Shown here piece after piece: positions 2,151 through 61,473 of a DNA stretch of 64,000 nucleotides; within the stretch, counting starts at the first letter, position 1; the number at the start of each line of letters is the position of its first letter. Made by a program: the position numbers and the translations under genes. The stretch is from Burkholderiales bacterium (GTDB taxonomy: Bacteria; Pseudomonadota; Gammaproteobacteria; Burkholderiales; SG8-39). The notes under the pieces are model-generated. The model ran no database searches and was not told the DNA's origin. It was given only the letters and a program-made list of their open reading frames with translations. Location of the stretch: assembly GCA_038903735.1 (NCBI GenBank), contig JBCKLP010000001.1, positions 1,767-65,766 of the forward strand. Direction: 5' to 3'.

Positions 2151-3158
2151 TTACTCCAGCTTGGCCCCGGAAATGCGCACCACCTCTGCACGTGCGGCAA
2201 GCTCATTCCTGATTAAGGCGGCAAATTCGTCGGGACCGAGCCCCGAGGGTTCGTAGGCCCGGCCGATCAACTCGCGATTGCGGAATTCAGGGTCGTTGAT
2301 CACCGCGACAATGTCCCTGTGAATACGCTCGACCAGCGGACGCGGCATGCCGGCGGGGCCGATCACGCCGAACCAGACCGACATAGCCACTTCAGGAAAA
2401 CCAGCCTCCGCAAAGGTCGGCAGGTCCGGAAGATAGGGCGTGCGCCTGGCGGCGCCATAGCCGATCGCCTTTAGCTTTCCCGCAGCGACTTGAGGTCGAG
2501 TGGAAAACACGCCGACCCAGGTGAGATTGACTTCCCCGCTGAGCACCGCTGCCATCATTTGCGGAATGCCTTTGTAGGGTACATGCAACATGCTGATCTT
2601 CGCCCGGTTGGCGAGCATTTCTGAAAGCAGGTGCATCTGGCTGCCGGCGCCAATCGAGGAATAAGTCAGCTTGCCGGGTGCGGAGCGCGCCAGCGCTACC
2701 AGTTCGGCAATATTGTTGGCCGGCAGTGAGGGGTGCGCCACCAGCACAGTGGCGAAAGTATTGACCTGGGTAATGGGCGTGAAATCACGTACCGGGTCAT
2801 AGGGGAGCTTGCTGTACAGATGCGGATTAATGGTGAACGCCACGTCGATCGCGAACAGCAGCGTATAGCCGTCGGGCGCGGACTTCGCCACCAGATCAGC
2901 GGCCACGGAGGTGTTCGCGCCGGGGCGGTTATCCACCACCACAGGATGTCCCCAGGTTGTGGACAGTTTTTGCGAGAGAGCCCGTGCAAGCGGGTCGCTG
3001 CCGCCACCCGGTGGCAGCCCGATCAGCATGCGCACGGGCTTTATCGGCCAGGCCTGCGCGGCAGCGCTGCCAATCGCACCAGGCCCGGATACCATGGCCG
3101 CTACTGCAGCCATGAACGTAAAAGCACTGGCTAAACCGACTCTGTTACGGCTCTTCAT
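2151..3158 (-). CDS. Bug/TctC family tripartite tricarboxylate transporter substrate-binding protein
   Basis: 335-aa ORF with a signal peptide and the family N-terminal motif PIKPVRMLIGLPPGGGSDPLARAL. GGAGG SD lies 6 nt upstream of the ATG at 3158. Confidence 0.85.
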   Translation of the reverse strand: MKSRNRVGLASAFTFMAAVAAMVSGPGAIGSAAAQAWPIKPVRMLIGLPPGGGSDPLARALSQKLSTTWGHPVVVDNRPGANTSVAADLVAKSAPDGYTLLFAIDVAFTINPHLYSKLPYDPVRDFTPITQVNTFATVLVAHPSLPANNIAELVALARSAPGKLTYSSIGAGSQMHLLSEMLANRAKISMLHVPYKGIPQMMAAVLSGEVNLTWVGVFSTRPQVAAGKLKAIGYGAARRTPYLPDLPTFAEAGFPEVAMSVWFGVIGPAGMPRPLVERIHRDIVAVINDPEFRNRELIGRAYEPSGLGPDEFAALIRNELAARAEVVRISGAKLE

Positions 3159-3222: not shown

Positions 3223-3312
3223 TTCATCTAAAACTAACTCCGGTTTGAAACCCCGCCCTTTAGGGCGGTGGGAGCCGACCCCGGCCTGAAGGCCTGTCGC
3301 TAATTTCTTGCT
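3223..3312 (-). mobile_element. Family-1 structured repeat, internally deleted copy (MITE/REP-like)
   Basis: Matches both ends of the 163-167-bp copies at 29699-29865 and 33847-34009. The interior between the two internal GGCCTGAAGG repeats is missing. Confidence 0.8.
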
Positions 3313-4073: not shown

Positions 4074-4124
4074 TTTAATCTCTCCGGGTTGAATTCCCCG
4101 CCCCTTGGGGCGGGGAAATTTATT
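4074..4124. repeat. Family-2 palindromic element, copy 1 (51 nt)
   Basis: TTTAATCTCTCCGGGTTGAATTCCCCGCCCCTTGGGGCGGGGAAATTTATT is near-identical to 61405-61455. The core hairpin is CCCCGCCCC-TTG-GGGCGGGG. Confidence 0.8.
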
Positions 4125-5069: not shown

Positions 5070-5921
5070 CTAATCGCGCAGCCGGATAGCCTGGAGCACC
5101 GGCAGCAGGTATCCGCGAAATTTCTCCGGGTTTTCGCTCATCGGAAAATGCCCCAGTTCGTGCATGATCTGCGCCTTTGCGCCGGGAATCGACGCGGCGG
5201 TCCTGAGGGTGTCTTCGGGCGTGCAGGAGTAATCGTATTCGCCGGTCATCAGGTAGAGCGGGCAGACGCCCGTGTCGATCAGGTGGGTGCGGTCCCTGTA
5301 ATCGGAATCCTAGCGGTAAAAGTAGAGATCGCCACGAAACACCCCCGGCCCGCTCTGCAGATAGCCCCACAAAGTCTCCCAGCGATAGCGCGCGGGTGAT
5401 TGCGGCGCCACCAGTCCCGAGACCATCGCCGCGCAGATTTCGCCGCCGTGCACATCGGCGCGATCCAGCCAGGCGGTGTCATACCAGGGGGTCTGGTGAT
5501 CGGCACCTTCCAGGCCGATCAGCGCGCGAAAGCGCGCAGCGTGATGCGCGCCCATGTGCAGCACGATGCGCCCGCCCATGGAGCAGCCCATCAGCACCGG
5601 ACGTTCCAGTTCGAGCGCATCGGCGACGGCGAGGATGGCTTCGGCATAGGACTCGGTGGTGAGCCGGTACTCTTCGTTTTCATATCCCTCGGGGGGCAGC
5701 GACTTTCCGTGCCAGGGCAGATCAAAAGCAATCACCCGAAAATGATCGGTGACGGCGCGATCGAGCATGAGGTGACGGAACTGGCGCGAATCCGCGCCGG
5801 CGGTGTGCAGGCAAAGGAGCGGGATGCCGCTGCCGGCTTCTTCGATATAAACCCGGCAGGGGCGCGAATCCAGCGTGAGCGTGGCATAGCGCCCGGTGAT
5901 GGGCTCGAAGCTAATGCTCAT
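5070..5921 (-). pseudogene. alpha/beta hydrolase interrupted by one in-frame TAG
   Basis: 203 codons, then TAG at 5310-5312, then 79 more in-frame codons to TAG at 5070-5072. The nucleophile elbow GCSMGG lies upstream of the stop. The likely acid and His (MTGEYD, ELGHFPMSENP) lie downstream. Confidence 0.75.
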
Positions 5922-6334: not shown

Positions 6335-6390
6335 TCGGATAAACGCCGAGCAATTCGATTCGGAAGAACGCTTGATTCGGCTTATTATTA

Positions 6391-6705
6391 CTGAAGGGAG
6401 GACTGAACAAGGGGCCTGCGCCCCTTGTATATCCCCAATATTAGTGGGAAAAGTCTGGCATCTCGTTGGAAAATGGGATTTAAGCAGTATTTCCTGAAGG
6501 GAGGACTGAACAAGGGGCCTTCGCCCCTTGTATATCCCCAATATTAGTGGGAAAAGTCTGGCATCTCGTTGGAAAATGGGATTTAAGCAGTATTTCCTGA
6601 AGGGAGGACTGAACAAGGGGCCTTCGCCCCTTGTATATCCCCAATATTAGTGGGAAAAGTCTGGCGTCTCGTTGGAAAATGGAATTTAAGCAGTATTTCC
6701 TGAAG
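6391..6705. repeat. tandem repeat, 103-bp unit x3 plus 6 nt
   Basis: Units start at 6391, 6494, 6597 and (partial) 6700, with only a few substitutions. Each holds the hairpin ACAAGGGGC-CTKC-GCCCCTTGT. 103 is not a multiple of 3. Confidence 0.95.
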
Positions 6706-9844: not shown

Positions 9845-10085
9845 CCTTCTCCCAGTGGGAGAAGGGCTTTGCATCCCTCTCCCGTTGGCGACCGGAGGGA
9901 GAAGGGCTTTGCATTTCTCTCCCGGAGGGAAACAGGCTTTTCATCCCTCTCCTGTCGGCGACCGGAGGGAGAAGGGCTTTGCATTCCTCTCCCGCCGGCG
10001 ACCGGAGGGAGAAGGGCTTTTCATCCCTCTCCCGGCGGCGACCGGAGGAAGTCCCAGTGGGAGAGAGGGACCGAGGGTGAGGGGA
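9845..10085. repeat. array of ~6 REP-like imperfect palindromes (~40-bp units)
   Basis: Repeated TCCCTCTCCC-N-GCGACCGGAGGGAGAAGGGCTTTGCA units, each self-complementary, between convergent genes. Confidence 0.85.
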
Positions 10086-15729: not shown

Positions 15730-15810
15730 AACAGGGGAGGGGAGAGTTCCCTCCCTTCCCCTTCGGGGAAAAGTAACGAACAGGGGAAGGGAGAGTTCGC
15801 TCCCTTCCCC
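15730..15810. repeat. two 33-nt palindromic repeats, 48 bp apart
   Basis: GAACAGGGGARGGGAGAGTTCSCTCCCTTCCCC occurs twice. Each forms an ~11-bp stem. Confidence 0.8.
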
Positions 15811-28137: not shown

Positions 28138-29703
28138 TCAGTGGCGGAAGTGGCGCACGCCGGTAAACACCATGGCGATGCCCAGTTCGTCGGCCGCGGC
28201 GATGACTTCATTGTCACGCAGGCTGCCGCCGGGTTGAATGATCGCCCTTGCGCCTGCCTGGGCTACCACATCGACACCGTCGCGAAACGGGAAAAATGCA
28301 TCCGAGGCCACGACCGATTTTTCCAGAGACAGCCCGGCATTCTGCGCCTTGATGGCGGCCATGCGCGCACTGTCCACGCGGCTCATCTGGCCGGCGCCCA
28401 CGCCCAGTGTGCGACCTCCGCCGCAAAACACGATGGCATTGGATTTGACGAATTTGGCAACCCGCCAGGCAAACAACAGGTCCGCCATCTGCGCGGCGTC
28501 GGGCGCGAGGCGTGTGACTACACGCAGGTCAGAGGCCGCCAGATTGCGATTGTCGGGTGTTTGCACCAGGAGCCCCCCGCCAACGCGCTTGAGATCGCGC
28601 TCAGCCGAGGCGTCGCCGGCGGCAATTTCGAGCAGACGGACATTGGCCTTGGCCGCCATGATCTCGCGTGCGGCCGGGGAAATTTCCGGCGCGATCGCCA
28701 CTTCGACGAAAAGCCTGGCGAGCGCTTGTGCGGTGTCGGCATCCAGCGGGCGGTTGAAGGCAACGATACCGCCGAATGCCGAGGTCGGATCGCAGGCAAG
28801 CGCCGCCTGATAGGCTTGCAGCGCCGTGCCGCCCACGGCAACGCCGCAGGGGTTGGCATGCTTGACAATGACACAGGCCGGCGTGTCGAAGGTTTTCACG
28901 CATTCCCAGCCAGCATCGGCGTCGGCAATATTGTTGTAGGACAACTCCTTGCCCTGAATCTGCCGATAGTTGGCCAGTGCGCCGGCAAAGGGCTGCGGAT
29001 CCCGATAAAACGCCGCGCTTTGATGGGGGTTCTCCCCGTAGCGCAGGTCCTGCACTTTCGAGAATTGCAGCGTCAGTCGCTCCGGCCATGGCTGACGTTT
29101 TCCGTCCGCATCCACGCTGCTCAGGTAATTGCTGATCGCCGCGTCGTAGGCGGCGGTATGGGTAAATACCTTTTTTGCCAGCTCAAAGCGGCGCGCGGCG
29201 CCGAGCGCGCATTCATTAGCCTGCAGTTCGGCGAGCAGGCTGGCGTAATCATGCGGATCGACAAGCACGGCAACACCCTGATGATTCTTGGCCGCTGCCC
29301 GCAACATGCTCGGCCCGCCAATATCGATATTCTCGATGGCCTCATCGAGGGAGCAGTCGGCACGCGCCACGGTTTTCTCGAAGGGGTAGAGATTCACCAC
29401 CACCAGGTCTATGGGCTCGATGTCGGCTTCGCGTATGGCACGCATGTGCTCGGGCAGGTCGCGCCTGGCAAGCAAGCCGCCATGGATGCGCGGATGCAGG
29501 GTCTTTACCCGGCCGTCCAGCATTTCCGGAAAACCTGTGTAATCGGACACTTCAGTGACGATAATGCCGGACTGTGTGAGTGCCTTCGCGGTGCCGCCCG
29601 TGGAAACAATGGCGACCCCAAGTCCGCTCAGCACGCGGGCAAACTCCACCACGCCGGTTTTATCGGATACGCTGATGAGCGCCCGGCGAATGGTGATGTT
29701 CAT
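28138..29703 (-). CDS. purH: bifunctional AICAR transformylase / IMP cyclohydrolase
   Basis: 521 aa with [11 protein letters not shown] and a C-terminus ending FTGVRHFRH. The start codon lies inside the Family-1 repeat. Confidence 0.95.
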
Positions 29704-29865
29704 CTAAAACTAACTCCGGTTTGAAACCCCGCCCTTTAGGGCGGTGGGAGCCGACCCCGGCCTGAAGGCCGGGGTTTCGGGGGCGGGCGTTTTGGGAGGG
29801 GATGCAAACCCCTTCCAAAACATGTTAGAGCGACAGGCCTGAAGGCTTGTCGCTAATTTCTTGCT
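29699..29865 (-). mobile_element. Family-1 structured repeat, full copy (MITE/REP-like, 167 bp)
   Basis: Near-identical to 33847-34009. It has four or more hairpins and no ORF. It is flanked by GATG(T) direct repeats. Its gene-proximal end is GGAGTTAGTTTTAGATGAA. Confidence 0.85.
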
Positions 29866-29924
29866 GATGTCAGGTGGAACCTTGTTGGCGCGTTCTTGCA
29901 TGCTTGGCACCGCGGGGGAGTGCG

Positions 29925-30176
29925 TCAACTGTTGATTTTCAGGGCGTTGATTTTCTTGCGCAGCGTATTTCTGTTGATGCCAAGCATCTCCGCGGCGATT
30001 GTCTGGTTGCCCTCGGCATGATCCAGCACGGCTTCGAGCATGGGGCGCTCCACATTCTTCAGAACCATTTCATAGATCGAGCAGGGGCGCGTGCCGTCCA
30101 GATCCTTGAAATAGCGTTCCAGAGAACGACGCACACTGTCAGCTATTTCATTGCCTTGCCGCAATCCCGTGCTCAT
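29925..30176 (-). CDS. fis: DNA-binding protein Fis
   Basis: 83 aa with the C-terminal HTH NQTIAAEMLGINRNTLRKKI. It overlaps the dusB stop. Confidence 0.92.
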   Translation of the reverse strand: MSTGLRQGNEIADSVRRSLERYFKDLDGTRPCSIYEMVLKNVERPMLEAVLDHAEGNQTIAAEMLGINRNTLRKKINALKINS

Positions 30177-31180
30177 GCCGCCTCCAGTTCGAGGTATTGA
30201 AGATGCCTGCCCTGCTGCGTCATCTGGCAGAAAAAGCCGTCGACCGCAGCCAGTTGCTCCTCGCAGATTTCAATCTGGTTCATCCGCTGCCGGAAACTTG
30301 CGGACCCCGCCAGACCCTTGGTGTACCAGGAAATATGCTTGCGCGCGACCTTCACGCCCCGTTCCCTGCCGTAGAAGGAGTAAAGCTCATGCAGGTGCGC
30401 AATCAGTACTTCATGGATCTCGCTCACCAGCGGCGGGTCGAGTTTGCGGCCGGACGCCAGAAAATATTCAATCTCGCGGAAAATCCATGGCCGGCCCTGT
30501 GCCGCGCGCCCGATCATCACGCCGTCCGCGCCGGTGTAATCGAGCACATGCCTGGCATCTTCGGGGGTGAGAATATCGCCATTGGCCACAACAGGGAGCG
30601 GGCTCGCGTTCTTGACCTCGCGTATGGTGTCGTACTCGGCATGTCCGGAAAACCCGCAGGCGCGGGTGCGTCCGTGCAGGGAAAGCAATTTGATGCCGCT
30701 TTCTGCGGCGATGCGCGCCACCGTGAGAGCGTTGCGGCTGCTGGCATCCCAGCCGGTGCGAAATTTCAGCGTGACCGGCACGCGGGAGGCCTGCACGACG
30801 GCTTCGAGGATTTTGCCCACCAGGCTTTCGTCGCGCAGCAATGCCGAGCCTGCCATGGCGTTGCATACCTTTTTGGCGGGACAACCCATGTTGATGTCGA
30901 TGATCTGCGCGCCCTCGTCGACGTTGTAGCGCGCGGCATCGGCCATCATCTGCGGGTCGGCCCCCGCAATCTGCACCGAGATCGGGTCGACTTCGCCGTC
31001 ATGATTGGCGCGCCGGCGCGTTTTCTCGCTGCCCCACAAGAGGGAGTTCGAGGAGACCATCTCGGAGACGGCAAGTCCGGCGCCAAACTTTTTGCACAAC
31101 TGCCGGAATGGCCGGTCAGTGACGCCTGCCATCGGCGCGACAAAAAGGTTATTGCGCAGCACATGGGTGCCGATTTGCAT
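30173..31180 (-). CDS. dusB: tRNA-dihydrouridine synthase B
   Basis: 335 aa with VAPMAGVTDRPFR and a TIM-barrel Dus pattern. The dusB-fis order is conserved. Confidence 0.92.
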   Translation of the reverse strand: MQIGTHVLRNNLFVAPMAGVTDRPFRQLCKKFGAGLAVSEMVSSNSLLWGSEKTRRRANHDGEVDPISVQIAGADPQMMADAARYNVDEGAQIIDINMGCPAKKVCNAMAGSALLRDESLVGKILEAVVQASRVPVTLKFRTGWDASSRNALTVARIAAESGIKLLSLHGRTRACGFSGHAEYDTIREVKNASPLPVVANGDILTPEDARHVLDYTGADGVMIGRAAQGRPWIFREIEYFLASGRKLDPPLVSEIHEVLIAHLHELYSFYGRERGVKVARKHISWYTKGLAGSASFRQRMNQIEICEEQLAAVDGFFCQMTQQGRHLQYLELEAA

Positions 31181-32546: not shown

Positions 32547-33851
32547 TCAGGCCGAGCCTACCAGCGCCTCGATTTCCGCGATGCTTTTCGGCGTGGCTGC
32601 GCTCAGAACCTCGTTGCCGGTTTCCGTAACCAGCACATCGTCCTCGATACGCACGCCGATATTCCAGAATTCACGCGGAATGGATTCGTGCGGGCGTATG
32701 TAGCAGCCCGGTTCGACGGTCAGCATCATGCCGGGGCGCAATGGCCGCCATTCGCCGGCGGTTTTGTACTCGCCCGCATCATGCACATCCAGCCCCAGCC
32801 AGTGGCCGGTACGGTGCATGTAAAAGCGCTTGTAGTCCTCTTTCTCCAGAACCTCAGCCAGGCTTCCCTTGCAAAGACCCAGATCGATGAATCCCTGCGC
32901 CAGCGTTTGCACGGCCGCCTCGTGCGCTTCGTTCCAGTGCCTGCCGGGCGCGACCTTGGCAATGGCGGCTGCCTGTGCGGCCAGCACCAGCCCATAAATT
33001 TCCCGCTGTCGCGCCGTGAATTTTCCGCCGATCGGCCAGGTCCGGGTGATGTCCGAGGCATATCCGTCAAGCTCGCACCCGGCATCGACCAGCAACAGTT
33101 CGTTCTCTCGCAGTGCGGCGTTATTGTCGCGATAATGCAGTATGCAGGCATTGGCGCCGCCGGCGACGATGGGCCAGTAAGCGGGGTATTGCGCGCCAAG
33201 GCGTCGAAACTGGTACAGCAGCTCGGCCTCGATCTCGTGCTCGTGCATGCCGGGGCGGGTGGCGCGCATGGCACTGCGATGGCCAGCGTCCGAAATCAGC
33301 GCAGCCCTGCGCATGGTGGCAATCTCGGTCGCGTCTTTGATCAGCCGCATCTCGTCCAGCGGGCCGCGCAGGTCGTGAATCTCAGCCGGCGCAGTGACAC
33401 CGGTGCGCGCTTGCGCGCGCACCTGATTCAGCCAGGACATGATGCGCGCGTCCCAGGCGGGATCGGCGCCGGGCATGTAATGCAGGCAGGGCTGGTCGGC
33501 GAGCAGTTTAGGAAGCATCTCATCGAGCTGCGAAATCGGGTGCGCCTCGTCAAAGCCAAAGCGCTCGCGGGCCGCCTCGGGGCCGAAACGAAAGCCCTCC
33601 CAAAGTTCCCGCTCGACATTCTTGTCGCGGCAGAACAGCAGCGACTTCGGCTCGCTTCCGGCAACCAGCACCAGAACCGCTTCCGGTTCCGGAAACGCCG
33701 TCAGGTAATAGAAATAGCTGTCATAGCGATAGAGGTAATCGCTGTCGCGATTGCGAAGTCGCTCGGGTGAGGTGGGAAGGATGGCCACACCACCCTGCAT
33801 GCTGCTGCAGAGTGCTGCACGGCGTCGTGCCTGTTCGATAGCTGTGTTCAT
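32547..33851 (-). CDS. pepP: Xaa-Pro aminopeptidase
   Basis: 434 aa with metal ligand motifs DAGCELDGYASDITRT and HRTGHWLGLDVHD. The start codon lies inside the Family-1 repeat. Confidence 0.92.
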   Translation of the reverse strand: MNTAIEQARRRAALCSSMQGGVAILPTSPERLRNRDSDYLYRYDSYFYYLTAFPEPEAVLVLVAGSEPKSLLFCRDKNVERELWEGFRFGPEAARERFGFDEAHPISQLDEMLPKLLADQPCLHYMPGADPAWDARIMSWLNQVRAQARTGVTAPAEIHDLRGPLDEMRLIKDATEIATMRRAALISDAGHRSAMRATRPGMHEHEIEAELLYQFRRLGAQYPAYWPIVAGGANACILHYRDNNAALRENELLLVDAGCELDGYASDITRTWPIGGKFTARQREIYGLVLAAQAAAIAKVAPGRHWNEAHEAAVQTLAQGFIDLGLCKGSLAEVLEKEDYKRFYMHRTGHWLGLDVHDAGEYKTAGEWRPLRPGMMLTVEPGCYIRPHESIPREFWNIGVRIEDDVLVTETGNEVLSAATPKSIAEIEALVGSA

Positions 33852-34009
33852 CTAAAACCAACTCCGGTTTGAAACCCCGCCCTTTAGGGCGGTGGGAGCC
33901 GACCCCGGCCTGAAGGCCGGGGTTTCGGGGGCGAGCGTTTTGGGAGGGGATGCAAACCCCTTCCAAAACATGTTGGACAGGCCTGAAGGCTTGTCGCTAA
34001 TTTCTTGCT
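33847..34009 (-). mobile_element. Family-1 structured repeat, full copy (163 bp)
   Basis: Near-identical to 29699-29865. It is flanked by a perfect 6-bp direct repeat GCTGTG (33841-33846 and 34010-34015). Confidence 0.85.
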
Positions 34010-34051
34010 GCTGTGAAGTATAGGGTCAAGCCGTGACGCATGGATTGCCCA

Positions 34052-34723
34052 TTATTTTCGCGCCAAATCCCGATCAAGGTCGGCCAGGCGTTGCGGCGTG
34101 CCGATGTCGTGCCAGGCGCCGCAATAAAGTTCTGCGCTGGCGCGCTCCGCGGCGGCGGCTGTGCGCAACAGCGGCGCCAGCGCGCAGCGCGCGCCGGGCT
34201 CGATCTCCGCAAACAACGCAGGGTCATACAGGCCGATGCCGGAAAAAGTATGCTGCTGCGGGCCTTCATTGCGCAGGAGGGTTCCATCGATCGCGAAATC
34301 GCCTTTCAGCTTATGCGCAGGGTTGGGGACCAGGACCAGGTGAGCGCTGTTAGTGCCGAGCCGATGCCCGCGTAGGCTACCGAAATCGAAATCACAGTAG
34401 ATGTCGCCCGCCACGGCAATGAAAGCCTCATTGCCCAGCAAGGGCATGGCCTTGGCGATGCCACCTGCTGTTTCCAGTGCCTTGCCTTCTGCGGAATAGC
34501 GTATCGATACGCCAAAGCGGCGGCCATCTCCCAGGGCGGCCTCTATTAGTGCACCCAGGTGCGCATGGTTGATAACGATGTCGAGTATCCCGCCCTCGCG
34601 CAGGCGCTCCAGAGTCCAGACGATCAAAGGCTTGCCGCCGGCGGCCAGCAGGGGCTTGGGTGTGGCATCGGACAATGGCCGCATGCGCTCGCCGCGCCCG
34701 GCCGCAAGTATCATCGCTCTCAT
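34052..34723 (-). CDS. murU: nucleotidyltransferase, MurNAc-alpha-1-phosphate uridylyltransferase-like
   Basis: Begins MRAMILAAGRGERMRPLSDATPKPLL. The ATG overlaps the stop of the upstream kinase gene (ATGA). The pairing with amgK next to lptD matches Pseudomonas. Confidence 0.65.
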   Translation of the reverse strand: MRAMILAAGRGERMRPLSDATPKPLLAAGGKPLIVWTLERLREGGILDIVINHAHLGALIEAALGDGRRFGVSIRYSAEGKALETAGGIAKAMPLLGNEAFIAVAGDIYCDFDFGSLRGHRLGTNSAHLVLVPNPAHKLKGDFAIDGTLLRNEGPQQHTFSGIGLYDPALFAEIEPGARCALAPLLRTAAAAERASAELYCGAWHDIGTPQRLADLDRDLARK

Positions 34724-35811
34724 TGGCTGGCAGCGGCGCCGTGCGCTGCGAGTTGATCGAGCAGGCGGGCCAGGCCGCCCAAGTCCCGGTAGCGGCGGCA
34801 CGTGGCGAGAAGATAGCCGAGCACCCTCGGCTGGTCGCCAAGATACCCACGTTTGCCGTCACGAAAGGCAAGGCGGGCAAAGATGCCGACAACCTTGAGT
34901 TGGCGCTGCACGCCCATCCATTCGAAATCCCGGTAAAAAACCGCGAAATCGGCCGCAACCGGGAGGCCGGCGCGGCGCGCTGCCTCCCAATAGCGTACGC
35001 ACCATTCGATGACGAGTGCCTCTTCCCATGCCACATAGGCGTCGCGCAGCAGCGACACCAGATCGTAGGTGAGGGGTCCGTGAACGGCATCCTGGAAATC
35101 CAGAATGCCCGGATTGGGGCTGCAAACCATCAAATTTCGCGAATGATAGTCGCGATGCACGAATACCCTGGGTTGCGCCAGATTGTTGTCGACAATGGCA
35201 GCAAATGCGGCATGTAATACTGCCTGCTGGGCCGAAGAAAGCGTTATTCCCAGTTGTTTTGCCACATACCATTCGGGAAACAAGCGCAACTCGCGCATGA
35301 GAAGGGCGCGATCATAATCGGGCAGATTGCGGGCAAGGTCGGCCTGCTGGATGGTGACCAGGGCCTCCAGCGCATCGCGATAAAGGTGATCGATATCGCC
35401 GCTATGCGATGCACCGGTGTCCTCACGCCACTGGCGCAACTGGTCAAGGTAGGTGCAGCCGCCCAGGTCGGAGAGCAGCAGAAATCCCCTGGCAGTGTCC
35501 TGCGCCCGGATAAGGGGCACGTTGACCCCCGCTTCATGGAGGAGGGCTGCGACGTGCAGGAAGGGTTGGCAATTTTCCTGGGCTGGCGGCGCATCCATGG
35601 CTATCAAGCTGCTGCCGTCGCCGCGGCGGATACGGAAGTAGCGCCGAAAACTGGCATCAGCGGAGGCCGGTTCCAGATCCAATGGCTCCTCCGGCAACTG
35701 TTCCTGCAGCCAATCGCGCAGCAGCGCCAGCCGATCCGGCACGTCCGGCGGGTCCGCCGGCGCAGGCATCATTGCGGATGCGGGGGGCACTGATTCATGA
35801 GCATCGGTCAA
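34720..35811 (-). CDS. amgK: aminoglycoside-phosphotransferase-fold kinase, anomeric MurNAc/GlcNAc kinase-like
   Basis: 363 aa with the catalytic loop HRDYHSRNLMV, followed by ILDFQDA. Confidence 0.6.
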   Translation of the reverse strand: MTDAHESVPPASAMMPAPADPPDVPDRLALLRDWLQEQLPEEPLDLEPASADASFRRYFRIRRGDGSSLIAMDAPPAQENCQPFLHVAALLHEAGVNVPLIRAQDTARGFLLLSDLGGCTYLDQLRQWREDTGASHSGDIDHLYRDALEALVTIQQADLARNLPDYDRALLMRELRLFPEWYVAKQLGITLSSAQQAVLHAAFAAIVDNNLAQPRVFVHRDYHSRNLMVCSPNPGILDFQDAVHGPLTYDLVSLLRDAYVAWEEALVIEWCVRYWEAARRAGLPVAADFAVFYRDFEWMGVQRQLKVVGIFARLAFRDGKRGYLGDQPRVLGYLLATCRRYRDLGGLARLLDQLAAHGAAASQ

Positions 35812-53444: not shown

Positions 53445-53500
53445 AGCGCTGGGACCCTTGTGACGTTAGTGCCTACTTACGCATAGGACCAAGAGAATCG

Positions 53501-53547
53501 TGGTGGCGAATGTAGGATTCGAACCTACGACCTGCGGATTATGATTC
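53501..53547 (-). repeat. 47-nt copy of a tRNA(CAT) 3' half (att-like direct repeat / tRNA fragment)
   Basis: Matches tRNA 55133-55209 from the anticodon loop to CCA. The exception is a T-stem carrying compensatory changes (GTAGG/CCTAC versus CACAG/CTGTG). The 5' half is absent. Confidence 0.85.
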
Positions 53548-53599
53548 GGGCGAGTGGAGAAATTCAGCACAAGCTGCAATATACAACAACAATCGAATC

Positions 53600-55086: not shown

Positions 55087-55132
55087 AGACACAAAAGAAA
55101 GCGGTCACTATCGTTAGAAACCGTATGAATAC

Positions 55133-55209
55133 TGGTGGCGAATCACAGATTCGAACTGTGGACCTGCGGATTATGATTCCGTCGCTCTAACCGACTGAGC
55201 TAATTCGCC
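55133..55209 (-). tRNA. tRNA with CAT anticodon (Met; Ile2/lysidine type not excluded)
   Basis: 77-nt cloverleaf folded by hand: GGCGAAT/ATTCGCC acceptor, GCTC/GAGC D stem, anticodon loop ATCATAA, CACAG-TTCGAAT-CTGTG T arm, encoded CCA. Confidence 0.85.
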
Positions 55210-60742: not shown

Positions 60743-61473
60743 GCGGCGCGGCGCAGGGCGCACCGGTTCGCGCGGTGCTGTTCGATCTTGACGGTACTTT
60801 GCTCGATACCGCAGGTGATCTGGCCTGCGCGGCAAATCGCATGCTCGCTGCCATGGGGCTGGCGCCGCGCAGCGAGTCGGAAATACGCGACTTTGTCGGC
60901 AAGGGCACGGCGAAATTGGTGGAACGCTGCCTTGCAGGCTCGAAGGTCGCGTTCGCGGATGCCATGGCCTTGTTTGATGCCGCCTATCGTGAGGAATCCG
61001 GTCGCAGCGCGCGGGTCTATCCCGGCGTTCGTGAAGGCATCGCCATGCTGGCCGAGGATGGCCTGCCCTTGGGTTGCGTCACCAACAAACCTGCGGCATT
61101 CACCCTGCCGCTGCTGCGCGACGCGGGGCTGGCCGCCCACTTTGCCGTGGTGGTCTCTGGTGACACTGTGGCGCGGCGCAAACCCGATCCCATGCCTTAT
61201 ACCCATGCCTGTGAACAATTAGCTGTTCCCTGTGCCCAGGTGCTGGTGGTCGGGGATTCCGCGAATGATGTCGAGGCAGCGCGGGCAGCGGGTTGCCGCG
61301 TGCTGTGCGTGCCCTACGGCTATCGCGAGGGCCAGTCGCTGGAGTCGCTGGCCTGTGACGCGGTGGTGGCCGATGTTCGCGCCGCTGCGCAATATGTGCG
61401 GGAGTTGAATCTGTCCGGGTTCAATTCCCCGCCCCTTGGGGCGGGGAAATTTATTGCGGAGCTTGCAGGATGA
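60739..61473 (+). CDS. gph: phosphoglycolate phosphatase (with a 19-codon repeat-derived insertion near the C-terminus)
   Basis: HAD motifs [17 protein letters not shown] and [11 protein letters not shown]. It follows rpe, as is common. The C-terminus reads through the Family-2 element. Confidence 0.88.
61405..61455. repeat. Family-2 palindromic element, copy 2 (51 nt), intragenic
   Basis: TTGAATCTGTCCGGGTTCAATTCCCCGCCCCTTGGGGCGGGGAAATTTATT is the same length as 4074-4124 with three substitutions. Confidence 0.85.

Follow-up and report, generated by a model that had tools for sequence, protein, structure and literature searches.

The element described here is a short structured repeat in a Burkholderiales bacterium (assembly GCA_038903735.1, contig JBCKLP010000001.1, positions 1,767 to 65,766), and "the window" refers to this whole stretch of 64,000 nt. 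The window holds three copies of the repeat, all on the minus strand, and two of them adjoin start codons, those of purH and pepP. The ATG at these junctions, together with the following two A's, belongs to the genes and not to the element. The adjacency of the repeat to ATGAA is that of an insertion target and is not a coincidence. The repeat is probably a non-autonomous, IS200/IS605-like palindrome-associated transposable element (PATE) with TTCAT as its target, which docks on native start codons. This assignment is made because the repeat has no terminal inverted repeats (TIRs) and no target-site duplication (TSD), two different subterminal hairpins, a one-sided 5-nt target and short deletion derivatives.

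The family was searched for with one 21-mer of the conserved part, GGGCGGGGTTTCAAACCGGAG, as seed, and the family counts given below (221, 158, 110, 67 and 58) are drawn from loci among the matches listed. The copies in the window and the genes beside them are as follows.

29699-29865, minus strand (gene-strand reading 29865 to 29699): element copy 1 with ATGAA, full length.
29704..29865, minus strand: element copy 1 proper, 162 nt, delimited by alignment to the element-free loci L120, L121, L122 and L123 and by the sharp fall in conservation over 158 copies; its sequence is AGCAAGAAATTAGCG...GGAGTTAGTTTTAG on the gene strand and 5'-CTAAAAC...(left end)...TAATTTCTTGCT-3' (right end) on the plus strand.
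29699..29703, minus strand: ATGAA at purH, the native start codon plus 2 nt; retained target (TTCAT on the plus strand), outside the element.
29714..29717, minus strand: GGAG carried by the element, 10 nt upstream of the start codon of purH; putative replacement Shine-Dalgarno (SD) sequence.
28138..29703, minus strand: purH, 521 aa, with its native upstream region displaced 162 nt by copy 1.
33847-34009, minus strand (gene-strand reading 34009 to 33847): element copy 2 with ATGAA, full length.
33852..34009, minus strand: element copy 2 proper, 158 nt, the boundary confirmed against element-free L124.
33847..33851, minus strand: ATGAA at pepP, the native start codon plus 2 nt; retained target.
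32547..33851, minus strand: pepP, 434 aa, directly downstream of copy 2.
3223-3312, minus strand (gene-strand reading 3312 to 3223): element copy 3 with ATGAA, 90 nt, internally deleted.
3228..3312, minus strand: element copy 3 proper, 85 nt, with the right-end terminus and the left-end half retained.
3223..3227, minus strand: ATGAA target of copy 3, intergenic.

Copies 1 and 2 are 98% identical over 133 nt. As read on the gene strand, all three copies start with AGCAAGAAATTAGCGACA and finish with GGAGTTRGTTTTAGATGAA, and GGAG-N10-ATGAA is the gene-proximal end common to them. The ATG of copy 1 (29703-29701) is the first codon of the 521-aa purH open reading frame (ORF; 28138..29703). The three copies, their shared end and this purH start had been described in the original prediction, and all were confirmed. 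The ATG of copy 2 (33851-33849), which had been overlooked there, is the first codon of a 434-aa Xaa-Pro aminopeptidase ORF, pepP; positions 5-433 of the 438 in the NCBIfam Xaa-Pro aminopeptidase model align with its residues 6-432. The ATG of copy 3 opens 18 codons only, and the actual downstream gene starts at 3158 with its own GGGAGG-N7-ATG.

Occupied sites were compared with empty ones. The fis-purH spacer is 55-66 nt long in three element-free relatives, whose purH genes are 81-82% identical, versus 221 nt in the window. In the element-free relatives purH starts at the same codon, ATGAACATCACC or ATGAACATCAC, and the junctions read ...CATT/ATGAACATCACC and ...CAAC/ATGAACATCACA (a slash marks the junction). 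In the purH alignment the element-free sequences are ...CATT/ATGAACATCACCCTGCGCCGC, ...CCAAC/ATGAACATCACAATACGCCGC and ...AAACC/ATGGACATCACC, and the window has ...TTTTAG/ATGAACATCACCATTCGCCGG. A start 10 residues before SVSDK, as in the window, is present in 98 of 120 purH homologues, and many begin MNI, MNQ or MNT. For pepP, most close homologues have 434 aa. The element-free locus L124 reads CTTGCAGGC/ATGAAACCATACATCGACCAGGCA (ATGAAA) and starts at the same codon (...GCAGGC/ATGAAACC), and the window reads CTTCACAGC/158-nt element/ATGAACACAGCTATCGAACAGGCA (ATGAAC). At both genes the element is the sole difference between the occupied and the empty site. The ATG is therefore native, since the element-free relatives share the start codon of purH and of pepP.

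Other genes show the same arrangement. Locus L045 carries the element at murU, while the murU of the window (ATG at 34723) is element-free and has the same ATG (ATGAGAGCGATGATA against ATGAAAGCGATGATC). Likewise, L013 is occupied and both L109 and L118 are empty, with ATGAA present in the two empty loci. For ten ORFs that open with a junction ATG (pepP, slyD, gatB, murU, dsbE, an amidohydrolase, iorB, nusB, waaF and an enoyl-CoA hydratase), the alignment to a full-length NCBIfam model begins within model positions 1-13, and in nine cases within positions 1-5. As a separate observation, the murU-like gene of the window (34719-34726) starts with ATGAG, and its ATG overlaps the TGA of the upstream gene (CCAATGAG). 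L045 (ATGAA, occupied) and the window (ATGAG, empty) form a natural pair at murU in which the fifth target base differs.

According to the original prediction, the element carries both an SD sequence and an ATG, makes a short TSD and was inserted into the ancestral coding 5' end of purH. The conservation of ATGAA at the end of every copy, the direct repeats of 5 nt around copy 1 and 6 nt around copy 2, and the upstream in-frame ATG found for both purH and pepP are in line with that proposal. Nevertheless, ATGAACATCAC (purH) and ATGAA (pepP) already stand at the same codon in element-free relatives, most homologues of both genes share the same length and N-terminus, and an exact chance re-creation of MNIT is not credible. 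The in-frame ATG upstream of purH does exist; a coding end interrupted by the insertion does not follow from it, as the relatives start at the same codon. The flanks do not support a duplication either. The proposed TSD, GATG(T) (ACATC on the gene strand), is there as a repeat, with ACATC or CATC just outside copy 1 (29866-29870 / 29695-29699). The CATC...CATC of the window is native, however, and element-free L120 likewise reads CATCATT ATGAA CATC. The corresponding repeat just outside copy 2 and its ATGAA is CACAGC (6 nt; 34010-34015 / 33841-33846), which has no counterpart in L124. Across the family no TSD was found, a flanking direct repeat being absent in 52 of 67 complete copies as judged against shuffled partners. 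Donation of the start codon by a duplicating element thus retains virtually no probability.

No TIRs were found in the consensus of 58 copies, the ends of which, AGCAAGAAATTAGCG... and ...GGAGTTRGTTTTACG, are non-complementary. A classical miniature transposable element with inverted repeats (MITE) derived from a DDE transposase was also considered. It was rejected because both defining features, TIRs and a TSD of fixed length, were tested and are absent.

The junction pentamer was examined across 158 copies from metagenome-assembled genomes (MAGs) of Rhodocyclales and Burkholderiales and from one Polaromonas plasmid. ATGAA accounts for 118 of them, ATCAA for 10 and ATGAC for 9; the minor target variant on the opposite strand is TTGAT (10/158). 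Conservation in these copies is 0.87-0.99 through ...ACGATGAA and about 0.3 at the next base. Empty sites hold ATGAA already, and the base preceding it differs from the G of the element. The pentamer is therefore the retained insertion target, which is TTCAT on the opposite strand. On that strand the family ends are 5'-TTCAT/CGTAAAACYRACTCCGG... (also CGTAAAAC...) and ...GCTGYCGCTAATTTCTTGCT/-3'. Three extra copies recovered by a metagenome scan all have TTCAT beside the left end, and no conserved motif was found at the flank of the other (right) end across the family copies. In the original prediction, a purH start at the same ATGAAC in relatives lacking the element was tied to a native ATG and a coincidental adjacency. 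The relatives do start there and the ATG is native; the adjacency reflects the target.

ATGAA begins 11 of the 56 crude gene calls in the window (~20%; Met-Lys or Met-Asn), and about 100 of 150 ATGAA/TTCAT sites lie inside coding sequence. The junction ATG opens a coding ORF of at least 100 codons in 33 of 110 evaluable copies (~30%). No long ORF begins at the junction in 67 of the 110, plus 13 without an ATG. A large share of copies on gene starts is expected if intragenic insertions are lost by selection, ATGAA being a common start. It requires no preference beyond the target motif, and insertion at position -1 of housekeeping genes is tolerated about as well as elsewhere in spacers.

The seed 21-mer matches more than 119 stretches of public genomes, and the repeat occurs far above chance. 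Among the matches listed, the host labels are nearly all those of termite-gut and environmental MAGs of Rhodocyclales and Burkholderiales; carriers include MAGs labeled Zoogloeaceae, 'Accumulibacter', Azonexus, Sulfurisoma, Burkholderiales, Trinickia and Ralstonia. In element-bearing loci, 221 matches were obtained with a profile of 58 complete copies, and the gene-proximal end is readable in 158 of them. Complete copies are mostly 166-173 nt long, and deletion forms of 63-95 nt are common. Many copies are located at the ends of contigs, as would be the case for any repeat of high copy number.

A blastn search against plasmids identified a copy on Polaromonas sp. JS666 plasmid 2 (L125, NC_007950.1 222-387) that is 89% identical to that of the window. 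It adjoins the annotated ATG of an IclR regulator gene. At this site a clear native AAGGAG has been pushed upstream, and the GGAG of the element has decayed to AAAG. A Polaromonas MITE, a possible member of the present family, was reportedly described by Mattes and colleagues in 2008.

Two further arrangements were observed among the loci. Perfect 48-nt palindromes composed of the right-end terminus and hairpin only, AGCAAGAAATTAGCGGCAGCCCTGAAGGGCTGCCGCTAATTTCTTGCT, are present at L060:160-207, at L066:5685-5732 and in L010 (about 5191-5234); they are mini-derivatives resembling repetitive extragenic palindromic (REP) or REPIN units. At L016:1960-2154, one copy directly follows a TTCAT in the loop of the right-end hairpin of another copy (...GGCGACAGGCATTCAT/CGTAAAACC...). 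The second arm of the host hairpin is absent, and the arrangement resembles nested insertion with a single-stranded loop as the target.

Four hairpins were assigned in copy 1.

29830..29853: hairpin 1, subterminal at the right end, GCGACAAGCC-TTCA-GGCCTGTCGC; on the plus strand a T-rich tail follows and the structure is terminator-like.
29790..29820: hairpin 2, TTTTGGAAGGGG-TTTGCAT-CCCCTCCCAAAA.
29755..29774: hairpin 3, CCCCGGCC-TTCA-GGCCGGGG.
29729..29744: hairpin 4, subterminal at the left end, CCGCCC-TAAA-GGGCGG.

The original prediction had listed these hairpins, and they were found to be real. Folding of the element strand was far stronger than that of shuffles (z = -7.6 as single-stranded DNA and z = -5.8 as RNA), and two of the hairpins show compensatory changes across the 58 complete copies. 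In hairpin 1 the exchanges are AU 31 / GC 24, CG 25 / GC 21 and CG 41 / AU 13; in hairpin 2 they are UA 44 / CG 9, GC 22 / UA 18 and GC 34 / CG 6. Together, hairpins 1 and 2 have 12 pairs with double-sided changes, a number reached by 0 of 500 shuffles and by no slid control. Hairpin 3 is conserved and 91% paired, with few double changes. Hairpin 4 is swapped in one subfamily for a CGCC/GGCG stem with a shifted register. The right-end hairpin lies 12 nt from the element end and the left-end hairpin 25-26 nt. G-T wobbles favor the TTCAT strand in both hairpin 1 (18:5) and hairpin 2 (66:5). The description of the repeat as a structured, non-autonomous mobile sequence lacking an ORF was upheld.

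Pairing of CUCC with the GGAG as an anti-SD regulatory switch was considered and rejected, being confined to the subfamily of the window and unconserved. A search of the window against Rfam 15 at the gathering score returned tRNA only, a relaxed search gave only sub-threshold chance matches, and the omega-RNA and HEARO models of Rfam did not match the element.

Elements of the IS200/IS605 group and their PATEs lack TIRs and TSDs, carry distinct subterminal hairpins and retain a fixed 4-5-nt target at the left end. The features described above suggest a corresponding mode of movement for the present repeat. A non-autonomous element of ~160-172 nt would be moved by a single-strand HUH transposase of the IS200/IS605 type and would integrate immediately 3' of TTCAT, the target staying attached to the left end. 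Seen from the opposite strand, such an element would always come to lie directly 5' of ATGAA, which is the beginning of roughly one gene in five. With insertions within genes being lost, about a third of the survivors would sit exactly on native start codons, the element separating the ATG from the upstream region native to the gene. With the GGAG of the element 10-11 nt before the ATG and no terminator on the gene strand, translation of purH, pepP and many other housekeeping genes could continue from the native ATG. The HUH/Y1 chemistry is inferred from this anatomy. TTCAT itself is the target and target-adjacent motif (TAM) of the IS200/IS605 element ISGst5, the PATE-like derivatives of which are mobilized in trans (PMC10055086). 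In the window, TTCAT is on the plus strand in all three copies, and on this strand genes of either orientation show the GC skew of a leading strand. The TTCAT strand would accordingly be the template for lagging-strand synthesis, which is the orientation expected of the IS200/IS605 group.

Several results weigh against the assignment to IS200/IS605-like PATEs. No Y1 TnpA was found by tblastn in the window and 119 loci (830 kb) with IS200 and IS608 TnpA queries. The plasmid search returned one PATE copy, that of Polaromonas JS666 plasmid 2, and no insertion sequence; the phage collection returned nothing. A metagenome scan with a pattern that excludes PATE sequence inside the left-end hairpin gave three matches, all of them short PATE variants, and no parent. 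The bias of the family toward one strand, as judged by local 8-kb GC skew, is weak (71 vs 52 of 123, p = 0.10). The left-end hairpin of one subfamily pairs better on the gene strand, with wobbles of 41:1. Both full-length copies in the window are flanked by direct repeats, of 4 and 6 nt, and repeats of at least 4 nt around the element plus ATGAA occur in 3 of 67 copies versus 0.43 expected, a small unexplained excess. On the side of translation, the GGAG spacing of 10-11 nt exceeds the 7 nt at a native gene nearby, and the GGAG is partly sequestered in the RNA fold of the window subfamily. A search of element-bearing loci for the two ends at a distance above 400 nt yielded only chance matches and the 48-nt palindromes.

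These searches leave room for a different enzyme, and another HUH-type or altogether different protein in place of Y1 is possible. The same duplication-free insertion beside TTCAT might be carried out by a Y2 HUH transposase of the IS91/ISCR type, a domesticated transposase resembling RAYT or an unknown recombinase. IS91-type elements insert beside a fixed tetranucleotide without duplication. The resemblance of the perfect 48-nt right-end palindromes (L060:160-207 and L066:5685-5732) to REP/REPIN units also speaks for this explanation, as does the lack of a cognate Y1 transposase in the loci, the plasmids and the metagenome scan. However, REP units are 20-40 nt long and have no known fixed insertion target, whereas subterminal hairpins that differ between the two ends, a 5-nt target confined to one flank and deletion derivatives of PATE size make up the classical IS200/IS605 picture. 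TTCAT is, moreover, a documented IS200/IS605 target (PMC10055086). Another enzyme is thus considered unlikely, and IS200/IS605-like movement remains the preferred explanation.

As a consequence of insertion, the native upstream region is displaced by 158-162 nt in the window, and the ribosome-binding site (RBS) has to be considered. The gene-proximal end of the element is ...CCGGAG-TTRGTTTTA(C)G, the last ~17 nt on the gene strand being ...CCGGAGTTRGTTTTA(C)G. Its GGAG is 10 nt from the ATG in the window (29714-29717) and 11 nt in most copies. Among 23 copies recovered without a GGAG-containing seed, 19 have kept it; the four that lost it are all at non-start positions (too few for significance). 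No promoter-like or terminator-like site was found on the gene strand of the element, and a consensus scan of 29500-30300 on both strands detected no sigma-70-like sites. The sole terminator-like hairpin of the element faces the opposite direction. The SD sequence in front of purH is probably element-borne. Initiation at the native ATG of purH and of pepP would then plausibly rely on this GGAG. Of the SD and ATG said in the original prediction to be donated, the GGAG does come from the element, with its function inferred, and the ATG does not.

A further explanation is that the repeat, like Neisseria REP2, is mainly a 5'-leader cassette acting in cis as a regulator, with promoter, RBS and start, which was selected for co-regulation and spread by recombination rather than by transposition. 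The position in sense orientation directly upstream of many genes is compatible with this, the compensatory changes in the hairpins could reflect RNA structure, and REP2 has been described with the same apparent layout (PMC3184786). A promoter-like site is missing, however, both in and beside the element, and in the majority of copies no long ORF starts at the junction ATG (67 of the 110 evaluable ones) or there is no ATG (13 copies). The downstream genes have no functional theme and own their ATG. Copies that are nested or truncated, and contigs that break at the repeat, are what selfish spread typically produces. A regulatory cassette is accordingly regarded as very improbable, and the data are better accommodated by a PATE that docks on native start codons.

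It is tempting to go one step further, although the idea is rather doubtful at present: evolution may have made the family a 'start-codon-docking' transposon, with position -1 of Met-Lys and Met-Asn genes as a principal site of insertion owing to the TTCAT target, and with a left end shaped to have an outward GGAG, an A/U-rich spacer and no terminator on the sense strand. The same mechanism could then explain Neisseria REP2 and Borrelia IR-A/B, with the ATG as retained target. If so, the docking left end would let essential genes such as purH, gatB and nusB tolerate the element.

Other repeats were noted in the window. At 9852-10078 there are five tandem hairpin units of ~30-40 nt with the form GGGAGAAGGGCTTTGCATCCCTCTCCC; the stem-loop is close to hairpin 2 of the element (GGAAGGGGTTTGCATCCCCTCC), which points either to a module common to both or to a distinct family of REP-like hairpins. 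An inverted repeat at 15734-15810 (GGGGAGGGGAGAGTTCCCTCCCTTCCCCT / AGGGGAAGGGAGAGTTCGCTCCCTTCCCC) has 29-nt arms, 83% complementary, with a 19-nt gap, and forms a G/C-rich hairpin. A 103-nt unit occurs at 6388-6705 in three head-to-tail copies of 96-98% identity (family D3), and a 51-nt repeat of 94% identity at 4074-4124 and 61405-61455 comprises a terminator-like hairpin, CCCCGCCCCTTGGGGCGGGG then AAATTTATT (family D7). A tRNA-Met(CAT) gene occupies 55133-55209, and its 3' half (alignment 55127-55184) has a 79% identical counterpart of 58 nt at 53495-53552. Only the gene itself is called by ARAGORN and Rfam; the 58-nt stretch could be the tRNA-fragment scar of an integrated element.

Placing the ATG with the genes corrects the attractive reading in which a repeat donates start codons to essential genes, and leaves a simpler rule, a one-sided 5-nt target that happens to complement a start context shared by many genes. 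The consequence for annotation is that the genes retain their conserved N-termini and that 160 nt of 'leader' is transposon. The family is widespread in termite-gut and environmental Betaproteobacteria and breaks MAG assemblies, with many copies at contig ends. Its insertions also amount to a natural experiment on dozens of housekeeping genes, in which the entire ribosome-binding region has been swapped for one common sequence, allowing the weight of the native upstream region to be tested. Finally, it offers a testable mechanism for REP2-like repeats, the spread of which has been an open question since 2000-2011.

Among known systems, the PATEs of IS200/IS605 are closest by mechanism, as exemplified by the ISGst derivatives of Geobacillus stearothermophilus (Meers et al. 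2023, PMC10055086) and by those of Haloquadratum walsbyi (PMC3119063). Like them, the present element is non-coding and 100-200 nt long, has neither inverted termini nor a duplication, carries different subterminal hairpins and inserts 3' of a fixed 4-5-nt motif. Unlike these precedents, its hosts are Betaproteobacteria, and no TnpA, TnpB or IscB partner was identified in the searches made. Apparently, TTCAT has not been recognized before as the complement of ATGAA start contexts, nor the left end as giving a replacement SD; no published note of either was found.

By phenomenon, the closest system is Neisseria REP2 (Parkhill 2000; Morelle 2003; Delihas 2011). These repeats of 120-154 bp have no TIRs, form internal stem-loops and are described as 'containing a promoter, an RBS and an ATG', fused to ORF starts (PMC3184786). 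According to Delihas (2011, PMC3184786), neither where they come from nor how they spread is known. Borrelia IR-A/IR-B have been described similarly. The original prediction knew of no described class of this kind, and REP2, with an apparent RBS and ATG fused to gene starts, is one (PMC3184786). The lack of TIRs, the internal stem-loops, the position directly upstream of ORFs, the RBS and ATG at the end and a betaproteobacterial host are shared with the present element. In contrast to REP2, which reportedly carries a promoter and marks a contact-induced regulon, the element has no promoter-like site, unrelated housekeeping genes lie downstream and the ATG is native; the two were compared by description only. 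BRE (Hot et al. 2011; ~90-bp consensus TTTTTTGGCCGCGGGCCGCCCAAGGCAAAAAAGCCCCC...) was examined as a candidate relative and rejected, the sequences in the supplement of that paper being unrelated to the element.

With bacterial MITEs such as Correia/NEMIS, ERIC, RUP and Nezha, the element has in common that it is short, structured, high-copy, non-autonomous and intergenic. MITEs can be co-transcribed with their neighbors and alter the expression of these, but they are defined by TIRs and TSDs from DDE transposases, both absent here. Inserts that preserve the expression of the gene that they interrupt or precede are also known, namely IStrons, by splicing, and engineered non-polar cassettes such as aphA-3, with outward SD and ATG. 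Unlike these, the present element has no intron and no coding capacity; it lands exactly 5' of the native ATG and supplies a GGAG.

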